A stretch of 64,000 nucleotides of DNA. Origin: a virus. The notes beneath the pieces were generated by a model. The model ran no database searches, was not told where the DNA came from, and worked only from the letters and a program-made list of their open reading frames with translations. Position 1 is the stretch's first letter. The number at the start of each line of letters is the position of its first letter. The stretch lies in the IMG/VR virus record IMGVR_UViG_3300031993_000069; one strand, written 5' to 3'. Of the stretch, positions 8,818 to 32,892 are shown piece after piece. Made by a program: the position numbers and the translations under genes.

Positions 8818-8821
8818 ATGT

Positions 8822-9267: not shown

Positions 9268-9272
9268 AATTT

Positions 9273-9467: not shown

Positions 9468-9544
9468 GGGTCACTAGCTCAATTGGTTAGAGCAGCCGGC
9501 TGTTAACCGGCAGGTTGTGGGTTCGAGTCCCTCGTGGCCCGCCA
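9468..9544 (+). tRNA. tRNA-Asn(GTT)
   Basis: Acceptor GGGTCAC/GTGGCCC, loop CTGTTAA, CCA. Confidence 0.8.
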
Positions 9545-9682
9545 TACGGTCCTTAGATATATTACCTTCTCGTGGTGGGACTGAACAGCTAAAGGATACT
9601 TGGAATTAATAGTATCGGCTAGACGAAACTTATATCGTAAAGACACGACTGGCCTGACGTGCGTAAATAACGGCCACCAAAT

Positions 9683-9757
9683 GGATCGCTCGTATATCGG
9701 TTAGTATACTTGGCTGTCTACCATGGGAGGAGGGTTCGATTCCCTCGCGGTCCGCCA
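9683..9757 (+). tRNA. tRNA-Asp(GTC)-like (atypical anticodon stem)
   Basis: Acceptor GGATCGC/GCGGTCC, loop CTGTCTA, T-arm GAGGGTTCGATTCCCTC, CCA. One mismatch in the anticodon stem and a pyrimidine at position 37. Confidence 0.5.
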
Positions 9758-9945
9758 TTGGAGCCTATACTTATTTCTAATTTGAAGATTCCAAGCCGCC
9801 ATTCGTAGGTTCGAATCCTACCATACCAGTATGGTATGTAGCCAAGCGGGAAGGCAGCGGCCTCAACAAAGCCAGTTAGGCCAAAATTAATTAAAACAAA
9901 TAAAGGAGATTAAGCTTATGTAATTATTTTAAAGGAGAAAAACTT

Positions 9946-10200
9946 ATGAATAGTTACTTTCGTAAAAAATACGAGAAACAAAAGCTTAAAAAACTAGCTG
10001 AAAAATGTGCTGGTTGGTGTGGCGGCAGCTATTATAGCGAAAGAAAAGGCCGTTACATTCGTTTTTGGAAAAGCCAAGGTAAAAATTCCTTCTGGGCTAC
10101 CGAAAAAAGATATGGCAGACGCATCTATCGAAGAAAGGCTAATAAAGTTGATTATAAATTAGCTAAAAAAGCCTTCGATCTTTGGTGGAATGTTTGGTAA
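9946..10200 (+). CDS. small basic hypothetical protein (84 aa)
   Basis: ORF with RBS AAAGGAG; Lys/Arg-rich. Confidence 0.5.
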   Translation: MNSYFRKKYEKQKLKKLAEKCAGWCGGSYYSERKGRYIRFWKSQGKNSFWATEKRYGRRIYRRKANKVDYKLAKKAFDLWWNVW

Positions 10201-10232
10201 AATGCTGTATAATATTAAGAGGTATACTCAGT

Positions 10233-11192
10233 ATGACTAAAATTATCCAAAATTTTTCAAGCAAAAAGCATATTAAAGCACTTCCTGTATTTGATATATT
10301 ACTTTGGAGTGCTGGATTACTTAATTTTAAAAAATTAGGCTATAAAACGAAGCTCTATTGTGAAAAATCAGATATTCCCTTCTTAAAGCGCTGGGGTTTA
10401 TATGATCTCTATGATGAAATTGATAGTAGATATCTAACAAAATTAGAGGAAGATGAGCGCTTTAAACAAATTGATGGTAATTGGTTTTGGTCTGTAAGAA
10501 AGCTATTTTGCATTGAACATGAATATAGTCTTAAATCAAAAGATAAATTCATGTATTTCGATACTGACATCTTACTTTATGACCATATTGAATTGCCAGA
10601 TTGGGCAAACCTATTCGTCTGGTCTATTGAAGAAGAGCCTATTTATATTCCTTGGGAATTCATGTCAGTTCCAGAAGGTTATAAAAAGCCTGAAGAATTC
10701 GATGATGACATGATTGCCTATAATTGTGGTATCTTAGCATTCAGCGATAAAGAAAAGTTTGAGCAATATTTTGCTGAATACTTGAAATTTACACAAGGAA
10801 ATCCCTGTAAATTATTACAAGGAGCTAATACTTCTGAGAAAACCCTCAAAAATATTTGGGCCTGTAATGCAGAGCAACGTATCCTATTAAATATTTCTCG
10901 TGCTGGAGACTGGAAAACTGTTATATTTGCAAATCCAGAGCAAGAAACCGGAATTCTTGGTTTCTATAAGGGCGGTAAACATTTCTATTTACTTCGTGCA
11001 ATTCTAAGAGATTTCACAGATGAAACTCAGGAGTCATTTAGAAACTTCTGGTTAGATATGTATAATGAAAATATCAAAGAATGCTTAGAGGTATTAGAAA
11101 AAGAAAATCCAGCACAATTAAATATATTCTTAGAAATTCCTTGGATTAAAAATTTATATAAATATAATTTCAAGGTAAAAGAATATAAGTAA
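10233..11192 (+). CDS. hypothetical protein (~320 aa)
   Basis: ATG at 10233 follows the TGTATAATAT promoter (10205) and RBS AAGAGG. The track ORF 10182 start lies upstream of the promoter. Confidence 0.6.
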   Translation: MTKIIQNFSSKKHIKALPVFDILLWSAGLLNFKKLGYKTKLYCEKSDIPFLKRWGLYDLYDEIDSRYLTKLEEDERFKQIDGNWFWSVRKLFCIEHEYSLKSKDKFMYFDTDILLYDHIELPDWANLFVWSIEEEPIYIPWEFMSVPEGYKKPEEFDDDMIAYNCGILAFSDKEKFEQYFAEYLKFTQGNPCKLLQGANTSEKTLKNIWACNAEQRILLNISRAGDWKTVIFANPEQETGILGFYKGGKHFYLLRAILRDFTDETQESFRNFWLDMYNENIKECLEVLEKENPAQLNIFLEIPWIKNLYKYNFKVKEYK

Positions 11193-11203
11193 AGGAGATA
11201 GCA

Positions 11204-11494
11204 ATGGGCGAAGATGTTTGGACATTGGGGCTATTTACCCTAAGAGACTACAACCATACAGAACCAGAATTAAAGGCTTGTGACCATTTATTCTGTATTA
11301 CTTATCAACAAGGGCAAGAGGAATATCCAGTAATGCTCTTGTGGAAACGCGGTAAACGATGTTTTACCAGGACCTGTAATGCTCCAGGTCTTAAATTACC
11401 AAAAGATATGCAAACAGCTATGTATCTATCAAGATTATCTACGGCTGCCATTCGTATCTTAAATGGTGAAAAGTTTAACCTATTTGATATATAA
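11204..11494 (+). CDS. hypothetical protein (96 aa)
   Basis: ORF with RBS AAGGAGATAGCA. Confidence 0.5.
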   Translation: MGEDVWTLGLFTLRDYNHTEPELKACDHLFCITYQQGQEEYPVMLLWKRGKRCFTRTCNAPGLKLPKDMQTAMYLSRLSTAAIRILNGEKFNLFDI

Positions 11495-11508
11495 AATAGG
11501 CACGACAT

Positions 11509-11594
11509 TGCGGTGGAGTGGCACGGACAACTATAAACCATTCTAGGCTCATAACCTAGCGATACCGGGTTCGACTCCCGAGCACCGCAACCAG
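11509..11594 (+). tRNA. tRNA-Met(CAT)-like with an enlarged D-region
   Basis: Acceptor TGCGGTG/CACCGCA, anticodon stem CTAGG/CCTAG with loop CTCATAA, T-loop TTCGACT, CCA. Length 85 nt with a 16-nt D-loop. Confidence 0.5.
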
Positions 11595-11875
11595 GAGTAG
11601 TTTTTGTTAGTTTTTGGAGCGCCAAGATCAAATACAAACTAACAGACAGTGTGACTATGTATATGATAGCACTATTCTAAAAATCGAAAGGATATACACC
11701 AGAAATTTGGTCGGCTAGTTGGCGTAAACCTAGCGATAGGAGCGTTTGCAACAGACCCTCAATAACTGCAGTGAGAGGGCAAGCACGAGCCTCCAAGAAG
11801 AGACTGCGATGGATGAAATATTCCTAGTGCACTTGGGCCGAGGACACAAGGTTCACTGGTTAAAGAACAAAACAC

Positions 11876-11951
11876 GGGGTATTGGTGCAGCGGTTAACAT
11901 GCCTCCCTGTCACGGAGGAGACCACGGGTTCGAATCCCGTATGCCCCGCCA
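11876..11951 (+). tRNA. tRNA-Asp(GTC)
   Basis: Acceptor GGGGTAT/ATGCCCC, anticodon stem CCTCC/GGAGG with loop CTGTCAC, CCA. Confidence 0.8.
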
Positions 11952-11980
11952 GTTCTTATTCAATTTATTTAGGAGGAGTT

Positions 11981-12283
11981 ATGATTATTACATTTAATGA
12001 TTTTTATGTCAATGTAACAGAAAATAATGTGCATATTCATGACTCTTACAAGATAAAAGGTAAGAAAAGAAAGCTTGAAATCATTAATGCAATCATAGCT
12101 TTCTGTCCAGAAGCTTTCAAAACTAGAACAATTAAGTCAGTTCTGAGAGAGTGGCGTGCACATAATGTCTTATATAAATTACATATTGCTAGAAATAGCA
12201 CAATGCATACAGACATTGAAGCACATCAAAAATTATTTTATAAAATTAGCTATTTACTTATTAATATATTCGGTATAGAATAA
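11981..12283 (+). CDS. hypothetical protein (100 aa)
   Basis: ATG with RBS AGGAGGAG 5 nt upstream, directly after tRNA-Asp. Confidence 0.5.
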   Translation: MIITFNDFYVNVTENNVHIHDSYKIKGKKRKLEIINAIIAFCPEAFKTRTIKSVLREWRAHNVLYKLHIARNSTMHTDIEAHQKLFYKISYLLINIFGIE

Positions 12284-12289
12284 GTATAT

Positions 12290-12365
12290 GGCTGGGTAGC
12301 CAAGTGGTTAAGGCGTCAAGCTCATACCTTGAAGATCGTCAGTTCAAATCTGACCCCAGCTACCA
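12290..12365 (+). tRNA. tRNA-Met(CAT)
   Basis: Acceptor GGCTGGG/CCCAGCT (G1·U72), loop CTCATAC, CCA. Confidence 0.7.
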
Positions 12366-12370
12366 GGTAT

Positions 12371-12445
12371 GCTCGCTTAATTCAGCGGGAGAAGGCAATC
12401 CTTACAAGATTGAGGTCGGCAGTTCGAATCTGTCAGCGAGCACCA
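12371..12445 (+). tRNA. tRNA-Val(TAC)
   Basis: Acceptor GCTCGCT/AGCGAGC, anticodon stem CAATC/GATTG with loop CTTACAA, CCA. Confidence 0.75.
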
Positions 12446-12644
12446 CGGCATGTATGCAATTATAAAACGCAGCCTACCGGTAAAGTAGGTGCTCTGAGTA
12501 GTCTCGAAGTAAGAGCTTTGTGGAATATTGCTAAATCGAGACTTTAGTAACAATATTCTAGGTGCAATTCCCACCATGCCAACCACCGCTCGGCTAGAGC
12601 ACAGCAAATCATACGGCTGTGTAGGAGAATCCCCGAGCAACCAC

Positions 12645-12718
12645 GCGGGAATAGGACAGTGGTAGTCCATCTGCTTGCCATGCAGACTACGCGGGTTCGA
12701 TTCCCGTTTCCCGCTCCA
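12645..12718 (+). tRNA. tRNA-Gly(GCC)
   Basis: Acceptor GCGGGAA/TTCCCGC, loop TTGCCAT, CCA. Confidence 0.8.
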
Positions 12719-12789
12719 CCAGGACAGATAAAGATTAGGTTCTTTATTAGGTTCTATGGCTGGACAAATCGATAAAACCAGCCACATTT

Positions 12790-12863
12790 GCGGGTATCGT
12801 CCAATGGTAGGGCCTCTGCCTTCCAAGCAGAAGATACCGGTTCGATCCCGGCTACCCGCTCCA
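12790..12863 (+). tRNA. tRNA-Gly(TCC)
   Basis: Acceptor GCGGGTA/TACCCGC, loop CTTCCAA, CCA. Confidence 0.8.
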
Positions 12864-12892
12864 TGCAGTATTTAGAAGGAGAAAATGCAATG

Positions 12893-12985
12893 AAAACACT
12901 TAAACTCAGTAAACTAAGTCGCCGTCGCTGTATAGCATGTTTTCGTTGTTGTCTTATAAATACCGCGTTAGCTCAATTGGATTAG
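12893..12985 (+). CDS. small Cys-rich basic peptide (30 aa) candidate
   Basis: RBS AGAAGGAGAAAATGCAATG. The peptide MKTLKLSKLSRRRCIACFRCC... has CxxC..CC spacing. Overlaps the 5' end of tRNA-Arg. Confidence 0.2.
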   Translation, partial: KTLKLSKLSRRRCIACFRCCLINTALAQLD

Positions 12986-13039
12986 AGCATATCGCTACGA
13001 ACGATAAGGTTGTGGGTTCGAGCCCTACACGCGGTGCCA
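12962..13039 (+). tRNA. tRNA-Arg(ACG)
   Basis: Acceptor ACCGCGT/ACGCGGT, loop CTACGAA, CCA. Confidence 0.8.
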
Positions 13040-13045
13040 GACATA

Positions 13046-13122
13046 GGATAGGTACCCAAGTGGCTTAAGGGAGCGGTCTGCAACACCGTTATTCGTGGGT
13101 TCGAATCCCATCCTATCCTCCA
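13046..13122 (+). tRNA. tRNA-Cys(GCA)
   Basis: Acceptor GGATAGG/CCTATCC, loop CTGCAAC, CCA. Confidence 0.8.
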
Positions 13123-13125
13123 AAT

Positions 13126-13200
13126 GGTCGTATAGCTCAACGGCAGAGCGGGCTCCTTATAAGGGCTAGGTTCCTGGTTCGAATCCAGGTGCGACCACCA
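13126..13200 (+). tRNA. tRNA-Ile(TAT) (AUA-decoding type)
   Basis: Acceptor GGTCGTA/TGCGACC, anticodon stem GGCTC/GGGCT (2 G·U) with loop CTTATAA, CCA. Confidence 0.55.
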
Positions 13201-13301
13201 AAACATGTTAATAGCACGCTCCTTTATGAAAAATCTTCAATATAAAGGAGTTTATTTATTTCAGCAAATATTGTATAATATAAAAGCAAGGAGCTATAAA
13301 A

Positions 13302-13820
13302 ATGATTGGTAAACACTTAAAAGACTATAAAAAAGCTTATAAAGCTGACCGCAGAGAAAACAGAAGAACTTGCGTTAAAAGAAATTCTGATTGGAAAAAA
13401 CGCTGGTTACCATTTATTAAGTATGATCATGATTTTGACGGCTTCTTCCTAATTGAACTTATGGTTCATAAATTACATATTATGCTTGATTACTATGACC
13501 ATGGCAAATATTGTATGCAAGTCGATGAGAGCCGACTTGAAATTGTTGAAAGCTTAAAAGAAGCTTGTAGACTTGGTGATTTAATCTTAGAGGATGATTT
13601 CAATGAACCTGCCTATAAAGTTATGATGGAACACCACCGTATGTGGACTGAGCCATGCAAAGACAATAGTCATCTTTGTGAAATTAAAATGGAATGGGAT
13701 AGCCCAGAGGCTAAGGCTGAATATGATAGGCTTGAAAAAGAAACTGATGCTCTCAGAGAAAAGACTATCGATGAATTCTTCGATTTTGTTAGAAAACATT
13801 ATCGTGAATGGTGGGATTAA
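13302..13820 (+). CDS. hypothetical protein (172 aa)
   Basis: ORF behind TGTATAATATAAAAGCAAGGAG. Confidence 0.6.
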   Translation: MIGKHLKDYKKAYKADRRENRRTCVKRNSDWKKRWLPFIKYDHDFDGFFLIELMVHKLHIMLDYYDHGKYCMQVDESRLEIVESLKEACRLGDLILEDDFNEPAYKVMMEHHRMWTEPCKDNSHLCEIKMEWDSPEAKAEYDRLEKETDALREKTIDEFFDFVRKHYREWWD

Positions 13821-13861
13821 TTAGTCCTCATCGAAAATGTCATTGAAAAAAACTAGACATT

Positions 13862-13952
13862 GGAGGAATACCCAAGAGGCCGAAGGGGACGGTTTGCTAA
13901 ACCGTTAGTGGTCGCAAGGCCAGCGAGGGTTCAAATCCCTCTTCCTCCGCCA
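13862..13952 (+). tRNA. tRNA-Ser(GCT), class II
   Basis: Acceptor GGAGGAA/TTCCTCC, anticodon stem ACGGT/ACCGT with loop TTGCTAA, long variable arm, G73, CCA. Confidence 0.8.
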
Positions 13953-13957
13953 TCTAT

Positions 13958-14034
13958 GCCCCGGTAACCGAATTGGCATAGGTACTAGACTTAGAATCTA
14001 GGTTCTGTGGGTTCAAGTCCCACTCGGGGTACCA
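13958..14034 (+). tRNA. class I (77 nt) tRNA with anticodon TAG (a Leu anticodon) and short variable loop
   Basis: Acceptor GCCCCGG/TCGGGGT (two G·U), anticodon stem CTAGA/TCTAG with loop CTTAGAA, 4-nt variable loop, T-loop GGTTCAAGTCC, A73, CCA. Confidence 0.55.
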
Positions 14035-14037
14035 TAT

Positions 14038-14415
14038 GGGCTCGTACTGGTTTCGATTGGTATTTGATGCTTATGACTACAGCAAGCTGATAACTTACTA
14101 TCAAACAAAAACAAACGACAAAACAAACTTTATGGCACACCTTGCCAACAACCAAATGGTTGCTGCTCGCGCCTAGTTCGCGAGAATGGTGATTGAGCTA
14201 GATAAGGTCGAATTTAGTTCTCTATTAATCAGACCTCGATGTTTATATCTAAGTAACTCCATATAAATGTTTAAATAAAGAGTAGACAACTGCTAGTATC
14301 GGATCGAAGGACTTGAGGTTCGCCGATAAAAAGAATATTTCTCAGGTTAAAGCTGTAATTAACGTTGTGGGGGTTTGGTATCAAGACAGGAGTTCGATTC
14401 TCCTCGGGTCCACCA
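14038..14415 (+). ncRNA. ssrA: tmRNA (transfer-messenger RNA)
   Basis: The 5' end GGGCTCGTACTGGTTTCGATTGG resembles the canonical tmRNA 5' end GGGGCUGAUUCUGGAUUCGAC. The 3' end AGGAGTTCGATTCTCCTCGGGTCCACCA pairs with the 5' acceptor and has G3·U70 and A73 (Ala identity). Length 378 nt. The internal frame ...NNQMVAARA-TAG is a candidate tag ORF. Confidence 0.75.
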
Positions 14416-14419
14416 TAAT

Positions 14420-14506
14420 GGGCGAGTGGCGTAACTGGTAGCCGCAATGGTCTAAGAAGCCATTGACCGAAAGGTCGTAGGGGTTCAAGTCCCCTCTCGC
14501 CCACCA
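14420..14506 (+). tRNA. tRNA-Leu(AAG), class II, A34
   Basis: Acceptor GGGCGAG/CTCGCCC, anticodon stem ATGGT/GCCAT with loop CTAAGAA, long variable arm TGACCGAAAGGTC, A73, CCA. Confidence 0.6.
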
Positions 14507-14561
14507 GAGTTATCTTTAATAATATTGTATAATATATTAGATATTGAAAGGAATTTATCTT

Positions 14562-14894
14562 ATGTATAGTTTACAAGAATTAATTGAACATGGATATGTC
14601 GATAGTATTACAACTGATGGAACACATCTTGGTGATGGTTATACTATTGTTGTTAAACTAAGCAGATATTCTATTGGTAAGATTACAATTAATGTTGGTA
14701 TTGATGAATACTTAGATGATGCTGTTACGCTTATTAATGGTATTATTGATATTCAAGAAAGCTTAAATAAAGAAGCTAAACCGGAAGAAAAGCCAACTAT
14801 TAGACATGTAACTGATCCAGATGAAATAAAGGAAATACTTTCTGGAACAGCAATTAAAGACACAAAAATTGAACCAGAGGATTATGCGGAATAA
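14562..14894 (+). CDS. hypothetical protein (110 aa)
   Basis: ATG behind promoter TGTATAATAT (14525) and RBS GAAAGGAA. Confidence 0.55.
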   Translation: MYSLQELIEHGYVDSITTDGTHLGDGYTIVVKLSRYSIGKITINVGIDEYLDDAVTLINGIIDIQESLNKEAKPEEKPTIRHVTDPDEIKEILSGTAIKDTKIEPEDYAE

Positions 14895-15073
14895 TGTATC
14901 AAATTATTAAAGACGATAAATATTATCTATATAATGATATAGGCGAAGAATTAATGACAATTACCTTCGACAATTCATTACCAGGAGACCAAGTAGTTAT
15001 TACTACACAGGATGAAGTTTATGCTGGTCCAATAAAATTTGTTACTTTTTCTGGAGATATTCCAAAAGAGTAG
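14894..15073 (+). CDS. small hypothetical protein (59 aa)
   Basis: ATG overlaps the upstream stop (ATAATG). Coding-like composition. Confidence 0.35.
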   Translation: MYQIIKDDKYYLYNDIGEELMTITFDNSLPGDQVVITTQDEVYAGPIKFVTFSGDIPKE

Positions 15074-15089
15074 CTTGTATATTATTAAT

Positions 15090-15186
15090 AGGGGCTTAGT
15101 GTAACGGCAGCACAACGGTCTTCAAAACCGCAAAGCGGGGGCCTCCAAAACCCCAGGTGCGGGTTCGAATCCTGCAGCCCCTGCCA
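15090..15186 (+). tRNA. Trp-like opal-suppressor tRNA, anticodon TCA, with an unusual 25-nt extra arm
   Basis: Acceptor AGGGGCT/AGCCCCT, G73, CCA. The D-arm and anticodon stem ACGGT/ACCGC are nearly identical to tRNA-Trp(CCA) at 8744, but the loop is CTTCAAA. A 25-nt insertion AAAGCGGGGGCCTCCAAAACCCCAG between the anticodon and T arms forms a hairpin. Own promoter TTGTATATTATTAAT sits immediately upstream. Confidence 0.7.
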
Positions 15187-15252
15187 TATAGAGCCTGTAC
15201 TTATTTCTATCACAAACCTTGAAATTTGCACGCAGTAGTCAGGCCATTTATT

Positions 15253-15438
15253 TTTATGAAATTTAAGTATAGAATTATTTGGGTTAATACAGTTAAAGGA
15301 AAACAAGAATATGTTGATATCGATGACCAGCATATTGTATTGTTTGTCGCTAAGAAAAAAGTTAGCGATGGAATGCAAGGAGTCATCATTCAAGTTTCTG
15401 GTGATCCATCTATGACTGACCCAGATGATGCTAGCTGA
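15253..15438 (+). CDS. hypothetical protein (61 aa)
   Basis: ORF downstream of motif A. Confidence 0.3.
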   Translation, partial: FMKFKYRIIWVNTVKGKQEYVDIDDQHIVLFVAKKKVSDGMQGVIIQVSGDPSMTDPDDAS

Positions 15439-15504
15439 CCGGCTATTGATGCGAATGCTTCTGAAGCTGAAAATAAAATAATTTAAAAAAATTAAAAAAA
15501 ACTA

Positions 15505-15534
15505 TTTACAAAAAATAAAAAAGTATTGTATAAT
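15505..15534 (+). promoter_or_regulatory. sigma70-like promoter
   Basis: TTTACA-N16-TGTATAATAAT. Confidence 0.6.
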
Positions 15535-15539
15535 AATAT

Positions 15540-16180
15540 TGTGAGTGTTAAGCAAGCACTCCAAAAGTGTTCTTTGAAAAATTTTAATTGGCACCTCGAT
15601 GAAGACATCTTGCACGATGGTCGAGGCTCGGCTCTAAGATGATGATAACTGGTGGGATACTGCTGGGTAAGTTGAAACTTCCAAAGTGATGAAGAAGTAA
15701 ACCTATTTAATTAGGATTGAGTCGATGGCGCAATTTGTTGCAGCGATTTAGATGAAAACACATATGCGGGTCCGACAAGAAGCTCTGGCCGTAAGGTCAT
15801 CTCACCTGTGGTATTAAGCCTGAGAAACTTAATGCCCGGTAACTCAAAGGAAGGACGCGACTTGATGTCAAGAAATTGACTATAACTGGTAATGTGTTTG
15901 TACAAGTAGCCGTATGTCGTACTACAAAGCTTTAACAGGATATTTATTAAATACTTTGCTGAAGCTCGGTGAAAGTTGATAGGTAAAGGTCCTATCTGTG
16001 GAAGTCGTAAGACCATTGGAGAAGTTATAGGGTAGCTCCCTGTGACTCAGCCTCCCGTGAGCATCCATTAATAAAGTCAAGCAATAAGGGTTGTATGGTG
16101 AAGACCGGAAATTAAAATTTTTTAAAGAGCACTTAAAAGTATTGCTAAATTAAGTAGACTTAAAAAGTCAGAAGGAGAAA
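15540..16180 (+). ncRNA. unidentified ~640-nt ORF-free structured RNA candidate
   Basis: Lies between a strong promoter and a small ORF. GC-enriched relative to the genome, with no ORF above 60 aa on the + strand. No RNase P P4 motif (GGAAAGUCC) seen. Confidence 0.3.
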
Positions 16181-16184
16181 AAGC

Positions 16185-16274
16185 ATGTTAAACTTAGTTA
16201 CTGTTAACGTTAGACCTACAGCAACAGCCAAACCAGCGTTGGTAAGTTTTGATATGCTCATGACCTCTGATAGA
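16185..16274 (+). CDS. small peptide (29 aa) candidate
   Basis: RBS AAGGAGAAAAAGC then ATG; followed by a perfect terminator. Confidence 0.25.
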
Positions 16275-16302
16275 TAAGTTAACTTAAAAACTTAACTAAG
16301 AT

Positions 16303-16335
16303 ACCGCAGTTGTGATGAGCAGCTGCGGTTTTTTT
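16303..16335 (+). terminator. rho-independent terminator
   Basis: CCGCAGTTGTGATGAGCAGCTGCGG followed by TTTTTTT. Confidence 0.85.
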
Positions 16336-16506
16336 AAGAAAAAATAACTAGCAATGTAAAACTCATAAGAGAGACGTGACGAAACCAAGGACTTCTGTGC
16401 CTTGGTCCCAAAAGTCTAAGGGATGAAATGAAGCCAGCAGTGCACAAAAAACTTGTTGCCTGATAAAAAAAGAGGCTGGTCAGGCAGAAGAAGAACGAAA
16501 GCTAGT

Positions 16507-16590
16507 TAATTATATGGGCCGATAGTTTAATTGGGAAAATACCCGCCCTGCAAGCGGGAGTTAGGGGTTCAAATCCCCACGTGTCCACCA
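16507..16590 (+). pseudogene. tRNA-like element (Ala-TGC-like anticodon arm, T-arm and CCA) with a non-pairing acceptor stem
   Basis: CCCGC-CCTGCAA-GCGGG anticodon-like arm, GGGGTTCAAATCCCC T-arm and a 3' CCA. The 5' GGGCCGA does not pair with the 3' CGTGTCC. Confidence 0.3.
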
Positions 16591-16595
16591 TTTAT

Positions 16596-16671
16596 GGGGG
16601 TGTAGCTCATCTGGGAGAGCACTTGATTAGCATTCAAGAGGTAGCGAGTTCGATCCTCGTCACTTCCACCA
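16596..16671 (+). tRNA. tRNA-Ala(AGC), A34
   Basis: Acceptor GGGGGTG/CACTTCC with G3·U70 and A73. Anticodon stem CTTGA/TCAAG with loop TTAGCAT. CCA. Confidence 0.6.
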
Positions 16672-16735
16672 GACAGAACCTGTGCTTATTTCTAACGTTA
16701 AATTTGGGATTTAAAAAGTAGCAGCCAGGTCAATT

Positions 16736-16811
16736 GCCGCCTTAGCTCAACTGGCAGAGCAACCGCCTTGTAAGCGGTAGGTTACTGGTTCGATTCCGGT
16801 AGGCGGCACCA
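16736..16811 (+). tRNA. tRNA-Thr(TGT)
   Basis: Acceptor GCCGCCT/AGGCGGC, loop CTTGTAA, CCA. Confidence 0.8.
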
Positions 16812-16815
16812 CTTT

Positions 16816-16892
16816 GGGGGTGTAGCTCAATTGGGAGAGCGCTCGCCTTGCAAGCGAGGGGTTGCGGGTTCAAGTCCCGTCACGTTCCACCA
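16816..16892 (+). tRNA. tRNA-Ala(TGC) with a 1-nt bulge in the 3' acceptor strand
   Basis: Acceptor GGGGGTG with G3·U70, anticodon stem CTCGC/GCGAG with loop CTTGCAA. The 3' strand CACGTTCC carries one extra nt. CCA. Confidence 0.6.
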
Positions 16893-17049
16893 CTAAAATG
16901 TAAGCCTATACTTATTTCTCCTCCTAAATTGTTGGGGGCCTTAGTTAGGCAATCAAAAAATTCATGCCACGGAAGGAAAACCGTATAAACCCTTACAGCT
17001 TCGTTCTTAGCCAGACGTAGACTAAGATAAAGTTAAGCTGATGTAATTT

Positions 17050-17126
17050 CGGGAGTTGGCTCAGCTTGGTAGAGCACTTGATTTGGGATCAAGGGGTCAA
17101 GGGTTCGAATCCCTTACTCCCGACCA
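17050..17126 (+). tRNA. tRNA-Pro(TGG)
   Basis: Acceptor CGGGAGT/ACTCCCG, loop TTTGGGA, CCA. Confidence 0.8.
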
Positions 17127-17251
17127 TTAGAGAACCTGTACTTATTTCTTAGCTTTGGGAGCCGCTGTTTGTTGGTTCGAGTCCAGCCTTCCCGACCATT
17201 ATCGGGAAGTAGGCAAATTGGTAAAGCCGGCGTTTATTAGTCAGGTCATAT

Positions 17252-17327
17252 GCGCTTTTAGCTCAGTTGGGAGAGCGTCTGCTTGACGTGCAGAAGGTCG
17301 TAGGTTCGAGCCCTGCAAGGCGCACCA
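17252..17327 (+). tRNA. tRNA-Val(GAC)
   Basis: Acceptor GCGCTTT/AAGGCGC, anticodon stem TCTGC/GCAGA with loop TTGACGT, CCA. Confidence 0.75.
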
Positions 17328-17331
17328 TTAT

Positions 17332-17408
17332 GCTCCTCTAGCCCAACTGGCAGAGGCAATGAGCTCAAACCTCATTCAGTATCGGTTCGAATCCGATGGG
17401 GAGTACCA
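17332..17408 (+). tRNA. class I (77 nt) tRNA with anticodon CAA (a Leu anticodon) and short variable loop
   Basis: Acceptor GCTCCTC/GGGGAGT, anticodon stem ATGAG/CTCAT with loop CTCAAAC, 5-nt variable loop, A73, CCA. Confidence 0.5.
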
Positions 17409-17427
17409 AAAAATTATTAAAAAACTG

Positions 17428-17456
17428 TTTACAACGCAGAATAAATGTTGTATAAT
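17428..17456 (+). promoter_or_regulatory. sigma70-like promoter
   Basis: TTTACA-N14-TTGTATAAT. Confidence 0.55.
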
Positions 17457-17566
17457 TATGAATGTAAGGTCGCGATGTGTGAGCATTAAACTATCGGCCC
17501 CTCACCTCCGAAAACCGTAGGCCGAGTCGGACCTTATATATAGATTGTTCAAAAAGGAGAAGAGTT

Positions 17567-17647
17567 ATGATGACAATGAACAAGAAAAACATCAAGAATA
17601 GAAAAACTAGAAAAACTAGTTCATTTAGTCATGGCTTAATTCAGTAA
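17567..17647 (+). CDS. small basic peptide (26 aa) candidate
   Basis: RBS AAAAGGAGAAGAG then ATGATG; followed by a terminator hairpin and T-run at ~17678-17712. Confidence 0.25.
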   Translation: MMTMNKKNIKNRKTRKTSSFSHGLIQ

Positions 17648-17772
17648 AACACTAATAATACGTTAACGTAAGATAGAGTGCCGAGTGGTTAAGCCGCCCG
17701 GCATTTTTTCTGGGATTACGTTAGCGCAACGGACAGGGACGACATAAGAGCGTGCTTTTCCAGAAATCACAT

Positions 17773-17849
17773 ACCTCCGTAGCTCAACTGGACAGAGCAT
17801 CGGTCTTCTAAACCGCAGGTTGGGCGTTCGAGTCGCCCCGGGGGTGCCA
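17773..17849 (+). tRNA. tRNA-Arg(TCT)
   Basis: Acceptor ACCTCCG/CGGGGGT, loop CTTCTAA, CCA. Confidence 0.75.
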
Positions 17850-17853
17850 AATC

Positions 17854-17928
17854 GCGTCCATAGCCAAGTGGTATGGCAATCGGCTTTTAACCGATGTACC
17901 GAGGGTTCGAATCCTTCTGGGCGCACCA
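17854..17928 (+). tRNA. tRNA-Lys(TTT)
   Basis: Acceptor GCGTCCA/TGGGCGC, loop CTTTTAA, CCA. Confidence 0.8.
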
Positions 17929-17933
17929 CATAT

Positions 17934-18010
17934 GCCTCCATAGCAAAATTGGCTAATGCACCTGACTCTTAATCAGGGGATTCTGGGTTCGAGTCCCAGT
18001 GGGGGTACCA
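17934..18010 (+). tRNA. tRNA-Lys(CTT)
   Basis: Acceptor GCCTCCA/TGGGGGT, loop CTCTTAA, CCA. Confidence 0.75.
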
Positions 18011-18012
18011 AT

Positions 18013-18088
18013 GCGCCGGTAGCTCAGCCGGTAGAGCACGTGACTTTTAATCACGGGGTCCAGAGTTCGAACCTCTGCCGGCGCACCA
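18013..18088 (+). tRNA. tRNA-Lys(TTT), second copy
   Basis: Acceptor GCGCCGG/CCGGCGC, loop CTTTTAA, CCA. Confidence 0.75.
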
Positions 18089-18090
18089 AT

Positions 18091-18165
18091 GCTGATTTAG
18101 TTTAATTGGTAAAATAATTCTCTCGTAAAGAATAGTAGTGTGTTCGAAACATACAATCAGCACCA
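18091..18165 (+). tRNA. tRNA-Thr(CGT), AT-rich
   Basis: Acceptor GCTGATT/AATCAGC, anticodon stem ATTCT/AGAAT with loop CTCGTAA, T-arm GTGTGTTCGAAACATAC, CCA. Confidence 0.7.
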
Positions 18166-18261
18166 TTAGAGCCTATGCTTATTTCTAGCTCAATGAGAGC
18201 GTTTGACATTTAATCAAAAGGTATAGCTAGGCCATTCTTGATAAATCTACTGTATAATATA

Positions 18262-18500
18262 ATATGGTTGCGATGAATTTTGCAGTTTCGACCCATGTGC
18301 ACAGAAATAGAAACTGCCTATAGGTTAATGTTGACCATAGTTATTGGTGCAGAGTACGTAATCTGCGAGGTAAACTCCGGTGTATGTTCATTCGCCGACC
18401 TATGAAGCTAAAAAATGAACGGAGATAGCGTATAAAAATGATTTATGAAAAGTACGTAACGCCCATGAGGAGAGGCCTCATGCTTCAATAAAAAACAAAA
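18262..18500 (+). ncRNA. unidentified structured RNA candidate (~240 nt) behind the 18250 promoter
   Basis: ORF-free. Ends in the hairpin CATGAGG-AGAG-GCCTCATG immediately before the next tRNA. Confidence 0.3.
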
Positions 18501-18503
18501 CTT

Positions 18504-18579
18504 GCCGGCTTAGCTCATCTGGTAGAGCAATTCACTAGTAATGAATAGGTGGTCAGTTCGAGTCTGGCAGCCGGCACCA
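18504..18579 (+). tRNA. tRNA-Thr(AGT), A34
   Basis: Acceptor GCCGGCT/AGCCGGC, anticodon stem ATTCA/TGAAT with loop CTAGTAA, CCA. Confidence 0.6.
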
Positions 18580-26667: not shown

Positions 26668-26883
26668 AATTTAATTATCGTATAATATTTTAGAACTTCT
26701 ATGTAGGGCAATTTTATTCGCTAAATTAATGTGACGACGTAAGTTGTCATTACATAGAAAAGGGCACAACCACGGTAACGTGGCGTCGCAAAACTAAAGG
26801 GCCTTGGGAGAGGCAGCCAGTTGCTTCTGTGAAACCGTTATTCATGGAAGTTTTTTATTTATATGGACAAGGAGAACACACAC

Positions 26884-27553: not shown

Positions 27554-28360
27554 ATGACATCAATTACGATTATTACAATAGTCGTAGTTGCACTCTTAAC
27601 TGTATTAATCTTTGGTTTAGCTTGGCTAGGTTATAGCTCTTGTTTAAAAAGCTATAAAATGGAGGTTGACCAAGGAAAACATGATGCTGAAATATTCAAA
27701 GAGTATCATTCTAAAAAGAAAAATAAAGGAGGACTAATTGGACTTATTGGTTCATACTTAGCCCTCCTCGCTTTATCTGGGCTATTTGTAACGGGAATAG
27801 TCTATAAAGCAAATGGTGAAAATTTTACTATTAATAATCAAACAGCCTTAGTTATTAAATCAGGGTCTATGTCTGAATATTATAGCGAAGAACTTGCTAA
27901 TAAATACTCAATTTATCCAGAATATCACTTTAATGTTGGAGATATTTGTGTATTTGAAAAGGTATCGGAAGATACTGAATTAGTTGAGGGTGAAGTCTAC
28001 GGCTATAAATACAAGAATATTATTATCACTCATAGACTTATTGGGTCTTTTGGAGATACGTATGAGTTTAGAGGAGATAATAACCCAGTTTCTGATGGCC
28101 TTTTAATTAAAAAAGCTAGTATTTTATATCATTATACTGGCAATAAAGTACCAGGAATTGGTGCCTTTGTTTTATATGCACAATCTTATTTTGGTATTTG
28201 GTCATTAGTTGGTATTATTGGGGTAATGACTAGCTCTGAGGTTGTTTATCATAAGATAGATAAGATAAATAAAGAAAGAGATAAAAAGCTTGATCCAAAG
28301 TTTATTCCGGAACCACCAAAGCTAAAAGAAAGAAAGCGAGGTAAAAAACATGAAAAATAA
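27554..28360 (+). CDS. ER/archaeal-type signal peptidase I (S26B, SipW-like)
   Basis: Box B VIKSGSMSEYY, box D IIITHRLI (catalytic His) and box E RGDNNPVSDG (GDNN, with no SPase-I Lys box) are ER/SipW-type hallmarks. N- and C-terminal TM segments. Confidence 0.75.
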   Translation: MTSITIITIVVVALLTVLIFGLAWLGYSSCLKSYKMEVDQGKHDAEIFKEYHSKKKNKGGLIGLIGSYLALLALSGLFVTGIVYKANGENFTINNQTALVIKSGSMSEYYSEELANKYSIYPEYHFNVGDICVFEKVSEDTELVEGEVYGYKYKNIIITHRLIGSFGDTYEFRGDNNPVSDGLLIKKASILYHYTGNKVPGIGAFVLYAQSYFGIWSLVGIIGVMTSSEVVYHKIDKINKERDKKLDPKFIPEPPKLKERKRGKKHEK

Positions 28361-29336
28361 ATTTTTACTCGCATTAATTAGCTTATTTGCTGTAACAGCT
28401 TTGATTGGAACAACCTATTCAGCTTGGACATTTACTAATGACCCAAGTATAACTAATAATGTTCAAATTGAAGTGCCTACTTGGAATTTCTTAACAGACC
28501 CCGGTTTTGCTAAACTTGATAATGTTAGAAATGTAACAAACTTAGTAGCTTCAAAAGAAGAGTCTATCACAGTAGGAAGTTCTGAGGCGCTTAGATTAAC
28601 TAGCACAACTGGAACATCTACAAAAGACCATACTGTAAATATTAATTTAGACCGAGACTATTATCTTTCTGAAATTCAATTCTTTAAGTTTGAGTTTGAT
28701 TATTATCATAGATATAAGAGAGAACAATATAATAAAGGTTTCCCAACAGTTCAATTTACAATTAATAATTCTACTTTGGGAACAAATCAAGGTGGAACTG
28801 ATACTTGCACAAGCAAGTCTCCATTTGTTGCTACGGCTATCGATGAAGATTGGTGGCATTTAGAATATTATATATTCGCTCATATGCCAACAATTGCCAA
28901 AGGTAAAGATACTCCAATTGCTACAACTAAAAAGATAAATGGCGTTAGAATCACTGATAGAACTATGTATGACTACGCTGGCACAACAGCTTATGTAGTT
29001 ATAGATAATATGCAATTTAGTGCTGAACCAACTTCAAGATTAGGTATCTTCAATAGATGGACAAGTGATGTTGTTGGAAATTTATTCTGGTTTAAAGTTG
29101 CTTGGTCTAGCGAAATACATTCTGTTAAGCTTTATTCAAGTGATACAAGCATAGCTGTTCCAGAATTCGATCCAACCGATACAGTTTCTACAAGCTATCC
29201 ATTCCCAAATGGAAGCCCATTCTACTTTGAATTATTACAGCCAGGAACTGTTAGATTTACTGCTGTATTAGAAATTGGTGATAATCATGATATTTATACC
29301 ATTATTTCTGATAATTTCACGGTAAATGCAGCTTAA
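28350..29336 (+). CDS. TasA/camelysin-like secreted protein with SipW-cognate signal peptide (paralog of 26884)
   Basis: Signal peptide ...LIGTTYSAWTFTNDPS; 328 aa. Confidence 0.6.
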   Translation: MKNKFLLALISLFAVTALIGTTYSAWTFTNDPSITNNVQIEVPTWNFLTDPGFAKLDNVRNVTNLVASKEESITVGSSEALRLTSTTGTSTKDHTVNINLDRDYYLSEIQFFKFEFDYYHRYKREQYNKGFPTVQFTINNSTLGTNQGGTDTCTSKSPFVATAIDEDWWHLEYYIFAHMPTIAKGKDTPIATTKKINGVRITDRTMYDYAGTTAYVVIDNMQFSAEPTSRLGIFNRWTSDVVGNLFWFKVAWSSEIHSVKLYSSDTSIAVPEFDPTDTVSTSYPFPNGSPFYFELLQPGTVRFTAVLEIGDNHDIYTIISDNFTVNAA

Positions 29337-29351
29337 AATATCAAAATTTAT

Positions 29352-30170
29352 TGTATAGTAATATATAGTTCCCCTGTGTCGGGGGTCCTGGTGCTAAAAA
29401 GTGGTTGTCATTGCCGGCCCGGCTGCCTCGGTAAGTCGCGGTTATCGATATAACCCGGTGTCCTTGCGGACTATTTCCAGGAATAACGAGCGCGAGCCCA
29501 CCTAGTCGGAGAGTCAGACCGCAACACCTGACGTTAAATCAATGTTCCTCCGTGAATAGGCAGTGGGAGAAGAGTAGGATACAAATGGCAGCGTGCCCGC
29601 AGAAGAAACTATTTCAATAATTTACAACGCTTAGGCGTTTAAATAGAGGATGACTAGTAACGCAAAGGAGTTCGACCTCGATAAAAAATGAATCCTTAGG
29701 TCAAGCTGAAATGACATAATTCAGCAGAATAAACTGTGTAAATTCGTGGCGTGAAAGAACGAGGCTGAAGATGAGCTGAGGCCGTGACGCTGGCCCACGT
29801 TAAAAAGAGAAGGAACGGGACTCTCATTAAATTGAGATTAGAGCCTACATGGTAGGCGGTAAGATGAAAATATAGGACGATGCCTGTCAGCATTGAGTAA
29901 ATGGGTAAGACTCTTGGAATAGACCTTAGATAAAGCCTTTAGAGTAGCGAAACCATAACACCTATATGGCCCTACAGCGGTCCCAGACGGACTCCACTTA
30001 ACCCCCCTCATTTATTATATCCCGAAGATGTAAACATCATCATTACTTGTAAGGCCTAGGTAATAGGCAAAGAAAAGGGAGAATGGGGCAGCTCATAAGA
30101 CACGTCCGAAGATGACGTTAAAGGTCTAATGAAGCTTAACTCGCAAAATAGTTAAGTTTTTATTTTTCTT
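29352..30170 (+). ncRNA. giant structured ncRNA candidate (~0.8 kb, GC-enriched, ORF-free)
   Basis: Follows promoter TTGTATAGTAATAT (29342) and opens with a GC hairpin CCCCTGTGTCGGGGG. About 48% GC against ~30% in the flanks. No ORF above 65 aa on either strand. Confidence 0.45.
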
Positions 30171-30289
30171 AAAAAATGATACGCTAAATTTATTACTACG
30201 GACTTTCCAAAAAAGTATCGTATAATATTTTAACGGATTCGCGAATTGGTATCCATAGCAATTCAGTCCGAAAGAGCAAGGAGAAAGAT

Positions 30290-30643
30290 ATGGAAAGAGA
30301 CACATTAGAACAATTCAGTAATAATCTTGACGAAAGTCGTAAAGCTGAATTAAAAGAACTAAAAAACTTACAAGAAAAGAAACTCAATAATGCAGAAGCA
30401 TTAATTGAAAAAAAGAAAATCTTAGCAAGTGAAGCGAAAAACATCGCAGAAACTAGCCAAATTCCTCTAACGCATATTTATAAATGTATTAGAGAGGAAG
30501 CTAAGGAAGGCAGAGTAAAGCTTGATTGGGGCATTTATAATATGAGCTCCAAATGCATTGAACTCACAAAAGAAGCCTTAATTAAAGATGGCTATTCAGT
30601 CGAAGTAAATAAAGACGAAAACTTATTAAAGATTAGTTGGTAA
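30290..30643 (+). CDS. hypothetical coiled-coil protein (117 aa)
   Basis: Promoter TCGTATAATATTT (30221), RBS AAGGAGAAAG. Confidence 0.55.
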   Translation: MERDTLEQFSNNLDESRKAELKELKNLQEKKLNNAEALIEKKKILASEAKNIAETSQIPLTHIYKCIREEAKEGRVKLDWGIYNMSSKCIELTKEALIKDGYSVEVNKDENLLKISW

Positions 30644-30649: not shown

Positions 30650-32830
30650 AGTAATCCGTTATTATATATCTTCCTGAAAATCTTTGGACAAAAGCCAAAG
30701 CGAATGATTGCATAAGTTGTATCGAGTGCAATCACGAGAAAGGGTACGCTGGGATGCTGGGAAGTAAAATATAGTGCACCAGTAATTGTCGGTGGCAATA
30801 TAAAACCGTTCGACGGAGATACAACTCTTGATCGATAAAGGCCTTGTTGATGGGTGAGGCTAGTGACCTCTTCAGGTAGAAATGAATCAACAGTATTAGA
30901 GCTTAAAAAGCACTCATAGAGGAAAACACCGAAATGTTCCAAAGGGGCTGACGAAATCCTAAGCGTCTATAAATAAAGTTTAGTGGAGCTTTATGAACGA
31001 GTGGTTGATTACCCAACGGTCCGCTTTACGAAGCGTTAAGAGGTTGGTAGGGGTTAAAGTTGTCTACCTATAATCACAAAACAACTGCTTCCTTGGCTAA
31101 TTTAGTCCGGTAGGAAGCTTATCAAAAGAGAGGTTGGGCATTCCTCCCCACATTGTGGTATTCCTTAATTGGATTTCTTCGGTAATTTATTACCGCTTCC
31201 TTGCCCGGCGGGCTAGGCTACCGCCCTCCTTCTGTTACCTAGCTAATGCAGAACGGTATTTTCTTAGGATATACTTCAGGTATGTCCTCTGATGCTAATT
31301 ACATCTGAATAAGATGCGATTATATATCAACATGTTGATTGCCAGTAAGCCATATGACTAGACATGAGCTTGCTCTTGAAAAGGCGCAACGGGGTTTGAT
31401 GAGAAAGTGACCACAACTAGTTATTAAAATCATCCGAGGATGCTATAAATACCTCGTTAAAAACTAATAGTTAAATAACCGTTCTCGATACGCCTCTTAA
31501 CAATGCGCAACAATCGGGCCTTCGTAATTCATAACAAAACCATGAGTATGGACGCATACGATGATTGGCACAAAAGGAATTACAAATCTGGCCGACCCAA
31601 TGGATAGTTTGAGGTGCGACTCCTCAATTGGTCTCAAAAAGCCCATGCAGCAGTAACCAGGGCTAATACTAAGACGTCAAAACGTGAAAGAGTCTGCTGC
31701 AAGAAGGAAAACTATAAACCTCCGGTTGGTGCCCGGCTAAACTGTAAGAAACAAGCTGCCTTTAAACAGTATAAAGATTAGGGGTGCGGAACTATCGCTG
31801 ATGTTAGCCTGTAGGAAAAGCGTCATAATGAGAGGCCAAAGGTTGTTGTGGTAAGAGCATGAACCGCGTTAAGCACAAGCGGGGAACAGCAGTAATGAAA
31901 CCGTGGTTTGGAATGACCTCATAACTAACCTAAAAATCCACAGAAATCGTTTCTGGACGTACAAACCAGATGGTAACCTTGAAATAGGTGCGAGAAGGAA
32001 AACTTAGCCAAACCCGTATTTAGCTTAATGTGGAAGCTTTATTCCAGCTTTGTTAGTGTGCTTTGTTGATACGTTGTTATCTAACAATGGCGGTTCGTCC
32101 GCAGGAGCAGCATTAAGAAATTCGTCTAAAACTATTCTATACATAATTTATTTATAGATTATGTAGGGGGAACCAAATACCGAGCCCATGAATCATAAAG
32201 ATCGGCGTCGAAGCAACGAAAGCTGCCATGTTGTCCGTGCACGGCGAAAGAAGGAACGGTCTAACGCAGTTGTCTAACGGATTGATTCACCGTTATAGAT
32301 TCTCACACAGAGAGGAGTACTGCTAAAGTAATGGTCAACATAAGGTTTGCGGTGATTATCTATGATAATTATAAAAACCTCGGTGAACTAGTTGACAGAG
32401 GCACGAAAAACCGCAATTTTCAAAAGAGAAGGAGCTTAATTGTTCCAATCTATCGTTTCCACCACCTGGTACTGATTATCGTGGAAGTCTTCTATGACTA
32501 TTTGTGGACGACCTAGCGCCTATATGGCTGACACTGTAAGACTTAGCATCTTATAAGGCTAGAGAAAGCCGGGGAAACTCCAGGACGGGTCTTGTTATTA
32601 CCCTGCTAAGAGGCGAAAGCAATATAAAAACACCCGAGTAAATCTAAGAACCTGCAATTTGGGGTTGAGCCCAGTTGAGAATTGAATAGGTAGTGCATTC
32701 ACTCAACAATGCTTATTAGCTTATGGCTCGAGGTTATCTCGCGCGACTAATAAGAAGAGCCCATGACGATAGGGAGCCGAATGGCATGCTATGTCCAGCA
32801 CTACATTTTTTTATATTTAAAATACTGTAT
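30650..32830 (+). ncRNA. second giant ORF-free structured RNA region (~2.2 kb), possibly several ncRNAs
   Basis: 2.2 kb with only two marginal ORFs (61 and 116 aa, the latter antisense and overlapping). GC-enriched, with many long-range complementary segments. Bounded downstream by the 32826 promoter. Confidence 0.4.
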
Positions 32831-32892
32831 AATATAATAGTTCAAAAGTCTCAAAAGGACGATTTGTAGCCCAAAAGGCGAAGGAGAATTAT

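Follow-up and report, generated by a model that had tools for sequence, protein, structure and literature searches.

A conserved, compactly folded RNA within a probable non-coding transcription unit of a T4-like jumbo phage

The locus: coding capacity, composition and transcription signals

This report concerns a region without genes at positions 29352–30170 of a viral DNA stretch of 64,000 nucleotides (nt) (IMG/VR record IMGVR_UViG_3300031993_000069; the whole stretch is called the window), and in particular the structured RNA of ~248 nt that is encoded on the + strand in the first part of this region (29365–29612, the long form of its family). This RNA is an autonomous, compactly folded unit with a family that we find only in related metagenomic phages and that is not in Rfam 15. 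Upstream of the region is the gene for a protein of 328 amino acids (aa) at 28350–29336, and downstream is a 117-aa open reading frame (ORF) at 30290–30643. We consider it likely that the region as a whole represents one non-coding transcription unit, reaching from a promoter to a terminator and composite in its make-up, in a T4-like jumbo phage of the rumen. This phage belongs to the T4-like jumbo myoviruses; Gp23 and Portal_T4 are found in its relatives, and the genes in the window include those for collagen/CBM tail fibres, PhoH, ThyA, a Thg1-like enzyme and phosphoesterases. The sample identifiers point to rumen-type metagenomes as the apparent source.

The preliminary description of this DNA had claimed that neither strand contains an ORF above 65 aa, and the ORF list bears this out for the region. 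Between 29620 and 30170, the + strand, which holds every gene in the window, has no ORF of at least 30 aa. Stop codons of all three types occur 12–23 times per frame in each of the six frames, and because they are so frequent the region is not a gene with a reassigned stop codon; the recoded gene with many TGA codons that the preliminary description had kept in mind is not there. It is hardly credible on other grounds as well that the region is a protein gene that has decayed or become frameshifted or recoded, or that it serves recombination at the level of DNA and has no function as RNA. It is true that two relatives (L001 and L036 in our numbering of loci) appear to read TGA as sense and that the site is recombinogenic, but all three kinds of stop codon are abundant in every frame, the three − strand ORFs of the region had no match in a Pfam search, the compensatory changes described below preserve Watson-Crick and G-U pairs and not codons, and the G-U pairs make the fold one of a + strand RNA only. 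In the two relatives mentioned, which have a transfer-messenger RNA (tmRNA) at the site, an apparent gene further downstream contains in-frame TGA codons (7690–8300 in L001). This suggests that TGA is read as sense in part of the phage clade; in the window itself, the genes are open when read with the standard code.

The content of guanine plus cytosine (GC) is 44.6% across 29352–30170, compared with a window mean of 37% and with 31–36% in the neighbouring genes. The enrichment that had been reported is real, but the figures given for it (~48% in a genome of ~30%) were too high. It is also unevenly distributed, with 51.5% at 29359–29618 and 42.8% at 29619–30132; as reference values from the same window, the ROOL RNA has 41% and the tmRNA 40%.

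Transcription is predicted to start at ~29366–29368, from an extended −10 promoter on the + strand, TGTATAGTA, at 29352–29360. This is one mismatch away from the recurrent motif TGTATAATA, of which the window has 17 exact copies on the + strand and one on the − strand; at up to one mismatch there are 62 matches, where 37.5 ± 5.6 would be expected. Three near-identical strains (L003, L005 and L008) have the consensus TGTATAATA at this very site, due to a G>A exchange at 29358, and a motif of the TGTATAATA class is located upstream of the RNA at equal distance in L012, L013, L014, L021, L024 and L037. The motif also precedes blocks of transfer RNA (tRNA) genes, and another copy, at 15527, is found 44 nt 5′ of the ROOL RNA. 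The promoter motif of the preliminary description is thus real and recurrent, but its sequence, TTGTATAGTAATAT, begins at 29351 and not at 29342, a difference of 9 nt.

At the 3′ end of the region, an intrinsic terminator (30135–30167, + strand) consists of the stem CTTAACT/AGTTAAG (30135–30141 and 30150–30156), an 8-nt loop and the T-tract TTTTTATTTTT (30157–30167). The next transcription unit is marked by GCTAAATT at 30183 and CGTATAATA at 30219. All 16 of the 16 copies of GCTAAATT are on the + strand (6.7 ± 2.5 expected; examples are at 16144, 26720, 30183, 36018, 46439, 50238 and 54765), mostly upstream of structural and tail-fibre genes, and this motif is probably a second, late-type class of phage promoter, distinct from TGTATAATA.

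Conservation, covariation and fold of the RNA

Homology to 18 related metagenomic loci is confined to the first ~250 nt of the region, nhmmer and BLAST together covering 29347–29620. The homologues were retrieved from the contigs of more than 160 homologues of the upstream 328-aa protein and from one exact-pattern scan of metagenomes, the latter with 18 matches, of which 13 are true loci and 5 occur by chance within a coding gene. The pattern matches L039 and L041 were likewise rejected as chance matches that do not belong to the family. A covariance model built from a MAFFT alignment gave 19 matches of 75–304 bits, corresponding to a single copy in the window (29359–29618, 294.6 bits) and 18 copies elsewhere. 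The RNA family was absent from IMG/VR viral contigs in a pattern scan, and two different patterns found no copy in 185,579 species-representative bacterial and archaeal genomes. Contigs carrying the 117-aa ORF proved to be the same phage at 99.8% identity and are therefore useless for covariation, and a 246-aa gene that was tried as a synteny anchor had no relatives in viral contigs.

The MAFFT alignment, which is not structure-fitted, contains 11 long-form sequences. When a hand-built structure is imposed upon it, 95.0% of the cells are paired, while controls in which the structure was slid along the alignment reached 34–48%. Double changes affect 32 of the 61 pairs, compared with 13.3 ± 2.3 in shuffles, and none of 500 shuffles attained this number. 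A model-based alignment of 17 distinct sequences that includes the pseudoknots has 97.0% of cells paired (37–43% in slid controls) and compensatory changes in 39 of 63 pairs, which was again reached by 0 of 500 shuffles. RNAalifold was also run on the family alignment in support of the fold. Many of the G-U pairs that are frequent in the fold of 29365–29612 would be A·C mismatches on the opposite strand, so that the fold exists as + strand RNA only. The preliminary description had supposed a large structured RNA of ~0.8 kilobases (kb) and had proposed a covariation analysis with related phages. That analysis, now carried out, supports 29365–29612, which is conserved in 18 loci and passes both the shuffled and the slid controls, but the conservation stops at ~29612 and, apart from one 57-nt element, leaves the remaining ~520 nt without a homologue.

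The ~250-nt unit has 10 helices plus two tertiary contacts. Both ends of the RNA are joined by P1 (29365–71 with 29605–12), and this helix closes the unit in all 19 homologues, which attests to the autonomy of the 250-nt unit. Next to P1 we model a four-way junction bearing the hairpin Pa, a variable arm (P2) and an arm in which P3, P4, P5 and P6 would be coaxial; its junction strands are ATAAC (29483–87) and GCAGAA (29599–604). Pa is small and conserved (29372–85), and its true outer pair was found by a scan for covarying columns. The stable GC hairpin that had been noticed at the start of the region (CCCCTG-TGT-CGGGGG, ~29371–29385) is kept in all relatives. P2 is formed by 29386–91 with 29477–82, P3 by 29488–94 with 29592–98, P4 by 29497–503 with 29559–67 and P5 by 29507–11 with 29548–52, and P6 is a hairpin at 29513–32; these helices, as well as P1 and Pa, derive from the covariation alignment and are all on the + strand, as are the features inside the P2 arm.

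This arm is an optional domain of ~97 nt closed by P2 (29386–29482), as seen when long and short forms are aligned. It contains P2a (29400–06 with 29469–75), P2b (29417–22 with 29455–61) and the hairpin P2c (29428–48), which has the loop GTCGCGG at 29435–41. The helices of the domain (helices 4–6) are 98.7–100% paired, with compensatory changes in 13 of 20 pairs. Whereas the long form has ~250 nt, the short form, present in L014, L018, L019 (1883–2062), L030 and L031, has 172–181 nt and a small plain hairpin in place of the domain. The P2c loop is palindromic or nearly so in four variants (UCGCGG, UCGCGA, GUAUAC and GUAUAU, in the window and in L016, L020, L027 and L033), and is non-palindromic (AAG) in L023 and L035. 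The palindromes are a hint that the long form might dimerise through kissing loops.

The most conserved element is a 14-nt loop, AGAAGAGTAGGATA (AGAAGAGUAGGAUA), at 29568–29581 on the + strand, which is identical in 19 of 19 family members. It is placed between P4 and the tertiary pair G29496:C29582, and is extruded because the two tertiary contacts fix the long 3′ strand of the P3-P4-P5-P6 arm. Counted in distinct sequences, the G29496:C29582 pair is G-C in 13, A-U in 1, U-A in 1 and G·A in 1. The other contact is formed by the P4 bulge CA (29561–62), which pairs with TG (29586–87); here, 29561:29587 is C-G in 9 distinct sequences and U-A in the other 8, without exception, and the 9-to-8 split cuts across the subgroups of the family. 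A literature search found neither the invariant loop motif AGAAGAGUAGGAUA nor a description of this RNA. A tmRNA-like tag or small ORF (ATG-GCA-GCG...) was considered and rejected, as it is unconserved: roughly half of the family has ATA in place of the ATG, and the base concerned takes part in a covarying tertiary pair.

Known RNA families and the 3′ tail

Applied to the whole window at the gathering score, Rfam 15 identifies ~38 tRNAs, a tmRNA, a cyclic di-GMP-I (c-di-GMP-I) riboswitch and a ROOL RNA, and has no match in the region. The last of these, at 15571–16127, is a full-length match to its model with 213.1 bits and provides a positive control for the search. When 29200–30350 was searched alone with permissive filters, no family was found even at E ≤ 10, GOLLD, ROOL, group I/II introns, RNase P and HEARO included, and at the same threshold 29352–30170 also has no match to tmRNA, signal recognition particle RNA, 6S RNA or any known riboswitch or ribozyme. 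The homologous RNA in relatives gave no Rfam match in 9 loci at E ≤ 1, nor in 11 loci at the gathering score. ARAGORN called nothing between 26000 and 34000, and the region had no match in a BLAST search of GenBank phages. The covariance-model search that had been recommended for the region thus returned no family, although it detected a true ROOL RNA in the same window, and the GOLLD- or ROOL-like identity that had been suggested is not supported. The ROOL RNA is located inside the tRNA/tmRNA region (~38 tRNAs at 7350–18576, tmRNA at 14038–14415), with TGTATAATA before it at 15527 and GCTAAATT after it at 16144. Mimicry of ribosomal RNA, for which a resemblance of AACGAGCGCGAGCCC and AGUGGGAGAAGAGUAGGAUA to 16S was considered, was rejected since local alignment was not significant (z = 1.4 for Escherichia coli 16S and z = −0.75 for 23S).

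ROOL is a rumen-derived structured non-coding RNA that is carried by phages and is typically located near tRNA islands (PMC12286853). The RNA described here is similar to ROOL (RF03087) as it is structured, phage-borne and from the rumen, and the true ROOL of the window is located behind the same TGTATAATA motif. It differs from ROOL in that there is no match to the covariance model, the conserved unit has ~250 nt and not 560–660 nt, and the helices and conserved sequences are unrelated. GOLLD is conserved in its 3′ region and less so in its 5′ region (PMC12286853). The locus has in common with GOLLD (RF01998) a unit of ~0.8 kb, its occurrence in a phage, an association with tRNA arrays and the combination of one conserved with one variable part; here, however, conservation is confined to the 5′ part and it is the 3′ part that varies, being absent from close relatives, and the covariance model gave no match. 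Since the 250-nt RNA matches neither ROOL nor GOLLD nor any other Rfam family, we regard it as a new RNA class of a known general kind. Phage T4 produces the stable RNAs C and D (species 1 and 2), non-tRNA molecules of ~120–140 nt that are processed from tRNA transcripts. These are comparable as small stable non-tRNA RNAs encoded together with tRNAs in a T4-type phage, but they are shorter than the 250-nt RNA, and the BLAST search of GenBank phages revealed no sequence relation.

The conserved unit is followed by a lineage-specific, GC-rich (42.8%) non-coding tail of ~515 nt (29620–30134, + strand), which lacks a promoter of its own and contains no + strand ORF of at least 30 aa. Compared with L013 and L038, 29623–30178 is an insertion, the flanking positions 29622 and 30179 being ~36 nt apart in those relatives. 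Homologues of the tail were not found in any relative compared, with the exception of one 57-nt element (29646–29699, + strand) that has 89% identity to L019 831–887 on the − strand, where it follows an abiF-motif block; that this element occurs elsewhere in another context suggests a mosaic nature of the tail. Three 19–21-mers from the tail had no true match in viral contigs. Within the window, the tail has no paralogues, and there is no paralogy among the region, the neighbouring ORF-free blocks and ROOL.

In the closest relatives, where the neighbouring protein is 79–89% identical, the tail is absent and a terminator comes right after the unit. A strong terminator directly 3′ of the 250-nt RNA is found in L012, L013, L021 and L037, where the window has a weak hairpin, AACGC-TTAG-GCGTT followed by TAAAT (29626–29639, + strand), that was not flagged by the terminator scan; read-through into the tail is therefore likely. 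The tail would have taken the place of the RNA's usual terminator and would have brought its own. It may be either a passenger or a second, orphan RNA, and its GC content argues against junk.

As an alternative to a composite unit, all of the ~0.8 kb could belong to a single giant RNA of the ROOL/GOLLD type, with a conserved 5′ quarter and with 3′ three-quarters that are fast-evolving or rare. One promoter and one strong terminator bracket the region, which has no internal TGTATAATA, the hairpin that follows the 250-nt unit is weak as a terminator, and the GC content of the tail comes near to that of ROOL and tmRNA. We nevertheless think that a giant RNA is improbable: Rfam gave no match at E ≤ 10, P1 alone closes the 5′ unit in all 19 homologues, the closest relatives lack the tail and terminate right after the unit, the 57-nt element in its other context suggests a mosaic, and the polarity of conservation is the reverse of that in GOLLD (PMC12286853). 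We thus prefer an autonomous 250-nt RNA to which a separate tail has been joined.

Cassette exchange and possible function

What follows the 328-aa gene homologue on its 3′ side varies from one relative to the next: some have the RNA in its long form and some in its short form, others have a tmRNA plus tRNA or an extra cassette, and the site may also be empty. There is a tmRNA at the site in L001 and L036, an extra cassette in L037 and nothing in L038. L013, L014 and L015 encode an identical 327-aa protein and yet differ in the RNA downstream, with the long form in L013 and L015 and the short form in L014, so that a cassette must have been replaced very recently. Directly 5′ of the RNA, a terminator followed by a promoter is found in L012, L021, L024 and L037, and 3′ of the RNA there is a terminator. 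These arrangements make the locus a hot spot of exchange, at which related T4-like phages swap promoter-RNA-terminator cassettes.

Cassettes of a promoter plus a stem-loop are known from T4-type phages as PeSL (promoter-early stem-loop) units, which shuffle ORFans and can give head-to-tail or circular products (PMC2839356, PMC4122927). The locus resembles these units in that a repeated sigma70-like promoter and a stem-loop terminator flank accessory cargo in hyperplastic regions of T4-like genomes, and in that cargo at the same site is present, absent or replaced between close relatives. A further, possible parallel is a head-to-tail junction of the 262-nt RNA unit at L007 1–110 (JGI 3300037731), where window 29556–29619 runs directly into the sequence from 29358 onward; the junction might stem from a duplication in tandem, from a mini-circle product or read-through as with PeSL units, or from chimeric assembly. 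In contrast to PeSL units, the cargo here consists of RNA genes and not ORFans, the motif sequences differ, and a mini-circle is only one possibility.

Among relatives, the RNA usually neighbours tRNA arrays or is embedded in them (L020, L023, L025, L029, L031 and L033). In L020, ~38 tRNAs come after it; in L023, where it has no promoter of its own, a tmRNA plus tRNA stand on one side of it and a tRNA array on the other; and in L031, a tRNA begins a few nucleotides after P1. The vicinity of tRNA arrays that the preliminary description had named for GOLLD and ROOL applies to the family in relatives but not to the window itself, where the arrays end at 18576, ~11 kb upstream.

The same neighbourhoods bear on whether the RNA could be a cis-regulatory leader, either a riboswitch or an attenuator, for the genes that follow. 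In favour of a leader, a terminator hairpin follows the RNA in several relatives, and the same phage uses a c-di-GMP riboswitch 2.5 kb upstream. But there is no consistent downstream ORF among the relatives, the RNA is found among tRNA genes in L020, L023, L029 and L031, the next ORF in the window (117 aa) is an ORFan with two promoter motifs of its own, and there is no overlap between the terminator stems and the 3′ strand of P1, all of which makes this explanation very improbable. The c-di-GMP-I riboswitch is located at 26753–26828, 5′ of a three-gene operon (224, 268 and 328 aa), and is kept across the clade (L001 4425–4499, L014 75–152, L016 8523–8600 and L017 8592–8670).

The most far-reaching interpretation, to which we give a probability of roughly 0.55, is that the 250-nt RNA is the first member of a hitherto undescribed class of compact, pseudoknotted RNAs associated with tRNA arrays in jumbo phages, and that the island at 29.3–32.9 kb is an RNA-only exchange site, similar to integrons or PeSL units. 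If this is true, the 3.5-kb island holds further undescribed structured RNAs together with an abiF-motif RNA, and structured RNAs are traded among these phages as accessory genes, in the way that other phages trade ORFans. The swappable promoter-RNA-terminator cassettes suggest a general route by which phages may gain and shuffle RNA cargo. ROOL and GOLLD are among the most striking RNAs of unknown function, and to these the locus would add a third, unrelated and smaller class. With its well-defined fold, two tertiary contacts supported by covariation and an invariant 14-nt loop, the RNA is a compact target for biochemistry and cryo-electron microscopy.

As for its function, the 250-nt RNA may be a stable trans-acting molecule that is made alongside phage tRNAs, tmRNA and ROOL from one promoter class. 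Its invariant loop, presented on a rigid scaffold, would bind a conserved partner in the host's translation or RNA-processing machinery. We put this forward tentatively, at somewhat less than even odds.

Several points weigh against our main interpretation, a composite unit that contains an autonomous 250-nt RNA. The function is read from the context, no partner protein or RNA was found for the 250-nt RNA, and a search of the window for antisense targets of the invariant loop gave none beyond chance. The transcript ends of the unit at 29352–30170 are predictions from sequence. Some of the covariation counts reflect shared ancestry, as there are only 17 distinct sequences and these come from related phages. 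The tail has a GC content typical of structured RNA and could for this reason be functional, as part of one long RNA in this lineage. Finally, folding-energy z-scores for the whole region are +0.53 on the + strand and −0.78 on the − strand; they do not discriminate here and are uninformative, the covariation-supported RNA itself having +0.6 and +1.5 and coding controls −1.2 to −2.6.

Rather than acting on translation or RNA processing, the RNA could be an anti-defence decoy or a mimic of an antitoxin, the island at 29.3–32.9 kb being an arsenal of RNAs directed against abortive-infection or RNA-targeting systems. The capture of an antitoxin RNA by a phage has reportedly been established for ToxIN. 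Such a role would agree with the accessory nature and rapid exchange of the cassettes, and with an abiF-motif RNA that is present 1.9 kb downstream with no abiF gene adjoining. We regard it as unlikely, as the family has no copy in the 185,579 bacterial and archaeal species-representative genomes searched with two patterns, and so there is no host template to mimic, and as no defence protein is linked to the RNA. The abiF-motif RNA (RF03085) at 31484–31519 starts one of the ORF-free blocks described below and scores 34.5 bits, which is below the gathering score of 37, while its homologue at L013 3219–3254 exceeds that score with 40 bits. It may be a phage-borne antitoxin-like or decoy RNA.

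The compact pseudoknotted fold with its unpaired invariant nucleotides would also be compatible with a ribozyme or with a self-assembling RNA-only particle, the loop and pseudoknots being the active site or a contact between subunits. Homo-oligomers are formed by ROOL, GOLLD (PMC12286853) and manA (bioRxiv 10.64898/2026.07.01.735769), which all occur in phages or close to them, and the P2c loop is quasi-palindromic in four variants. manA and others reported with it resemble the 250-nt RNA as phage structured RNAs of less than 300 nt that self-assemble (bioRxiv 10.64898/2026.07.01.735769), and the palindromic loop hints at dimerisation here too; on the other hand, there is no homology, and it is from loop sequences alone that oligomerisation of our RNA is hinted. 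The loop is non-palindromic (AAG) in L023 and L035, the short forms are entirely without the domain, no known ribozyme family matched, and no signature of a cleavage site is evident, so we consider this explanation quite unlikely and retain the trans-acting RNA as our working proposal.

Beyond the 117-aa ORF there is a second ORF-free, GC-rich block of 2.2 kb (30650–32880, 41–44% GC). It comprises at least six sub-blocks (30894–31294, 31321–31431, 31483–31714, 31944–32057, 32169–32418 and 32457–32718), which are conserved in relatives in differing orders and thus form a mosaic. The first of them shows compensatory changes in several hairpins. The block probably represents several more uncatalogued RNAs, and these 2.2 kb, full of conserved non-coding blocks, are a place to seek further RNA classes.

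Some relatives have additional elements close to the RNA. In L016, a tRNA-like 3′ end, GACGGTTCGATTCCGTCACCGCCCGCCA, occurs ~20 nt after the RNA (8395–8422); no tRNA or tmRNA is called at this place by either ARAGORN or Rfam, and the sequence may represent a piece of a tRNA or a tRNA-like element of an unusual kind. The extra cassette of L037 (1150–1290), ~150 nt from promoter to terminator, separates the RNA from the 329-aa gene. Part of it, GGATAAGGGCGGGTCTAGCCAACCT, is similar to the family's J/P3/P4 segment, and the cassette may be a distant mini-paralogue; the covariance model gave no match to this cassette. Weak matches to YrlA (Y RNA-like), for which the gathering score is 69, are found within RNA arrays at L033 2004–2131 (33.8 bits) and L035 476–587 (24.9 bits), the latter immediately upstream of the RNA.

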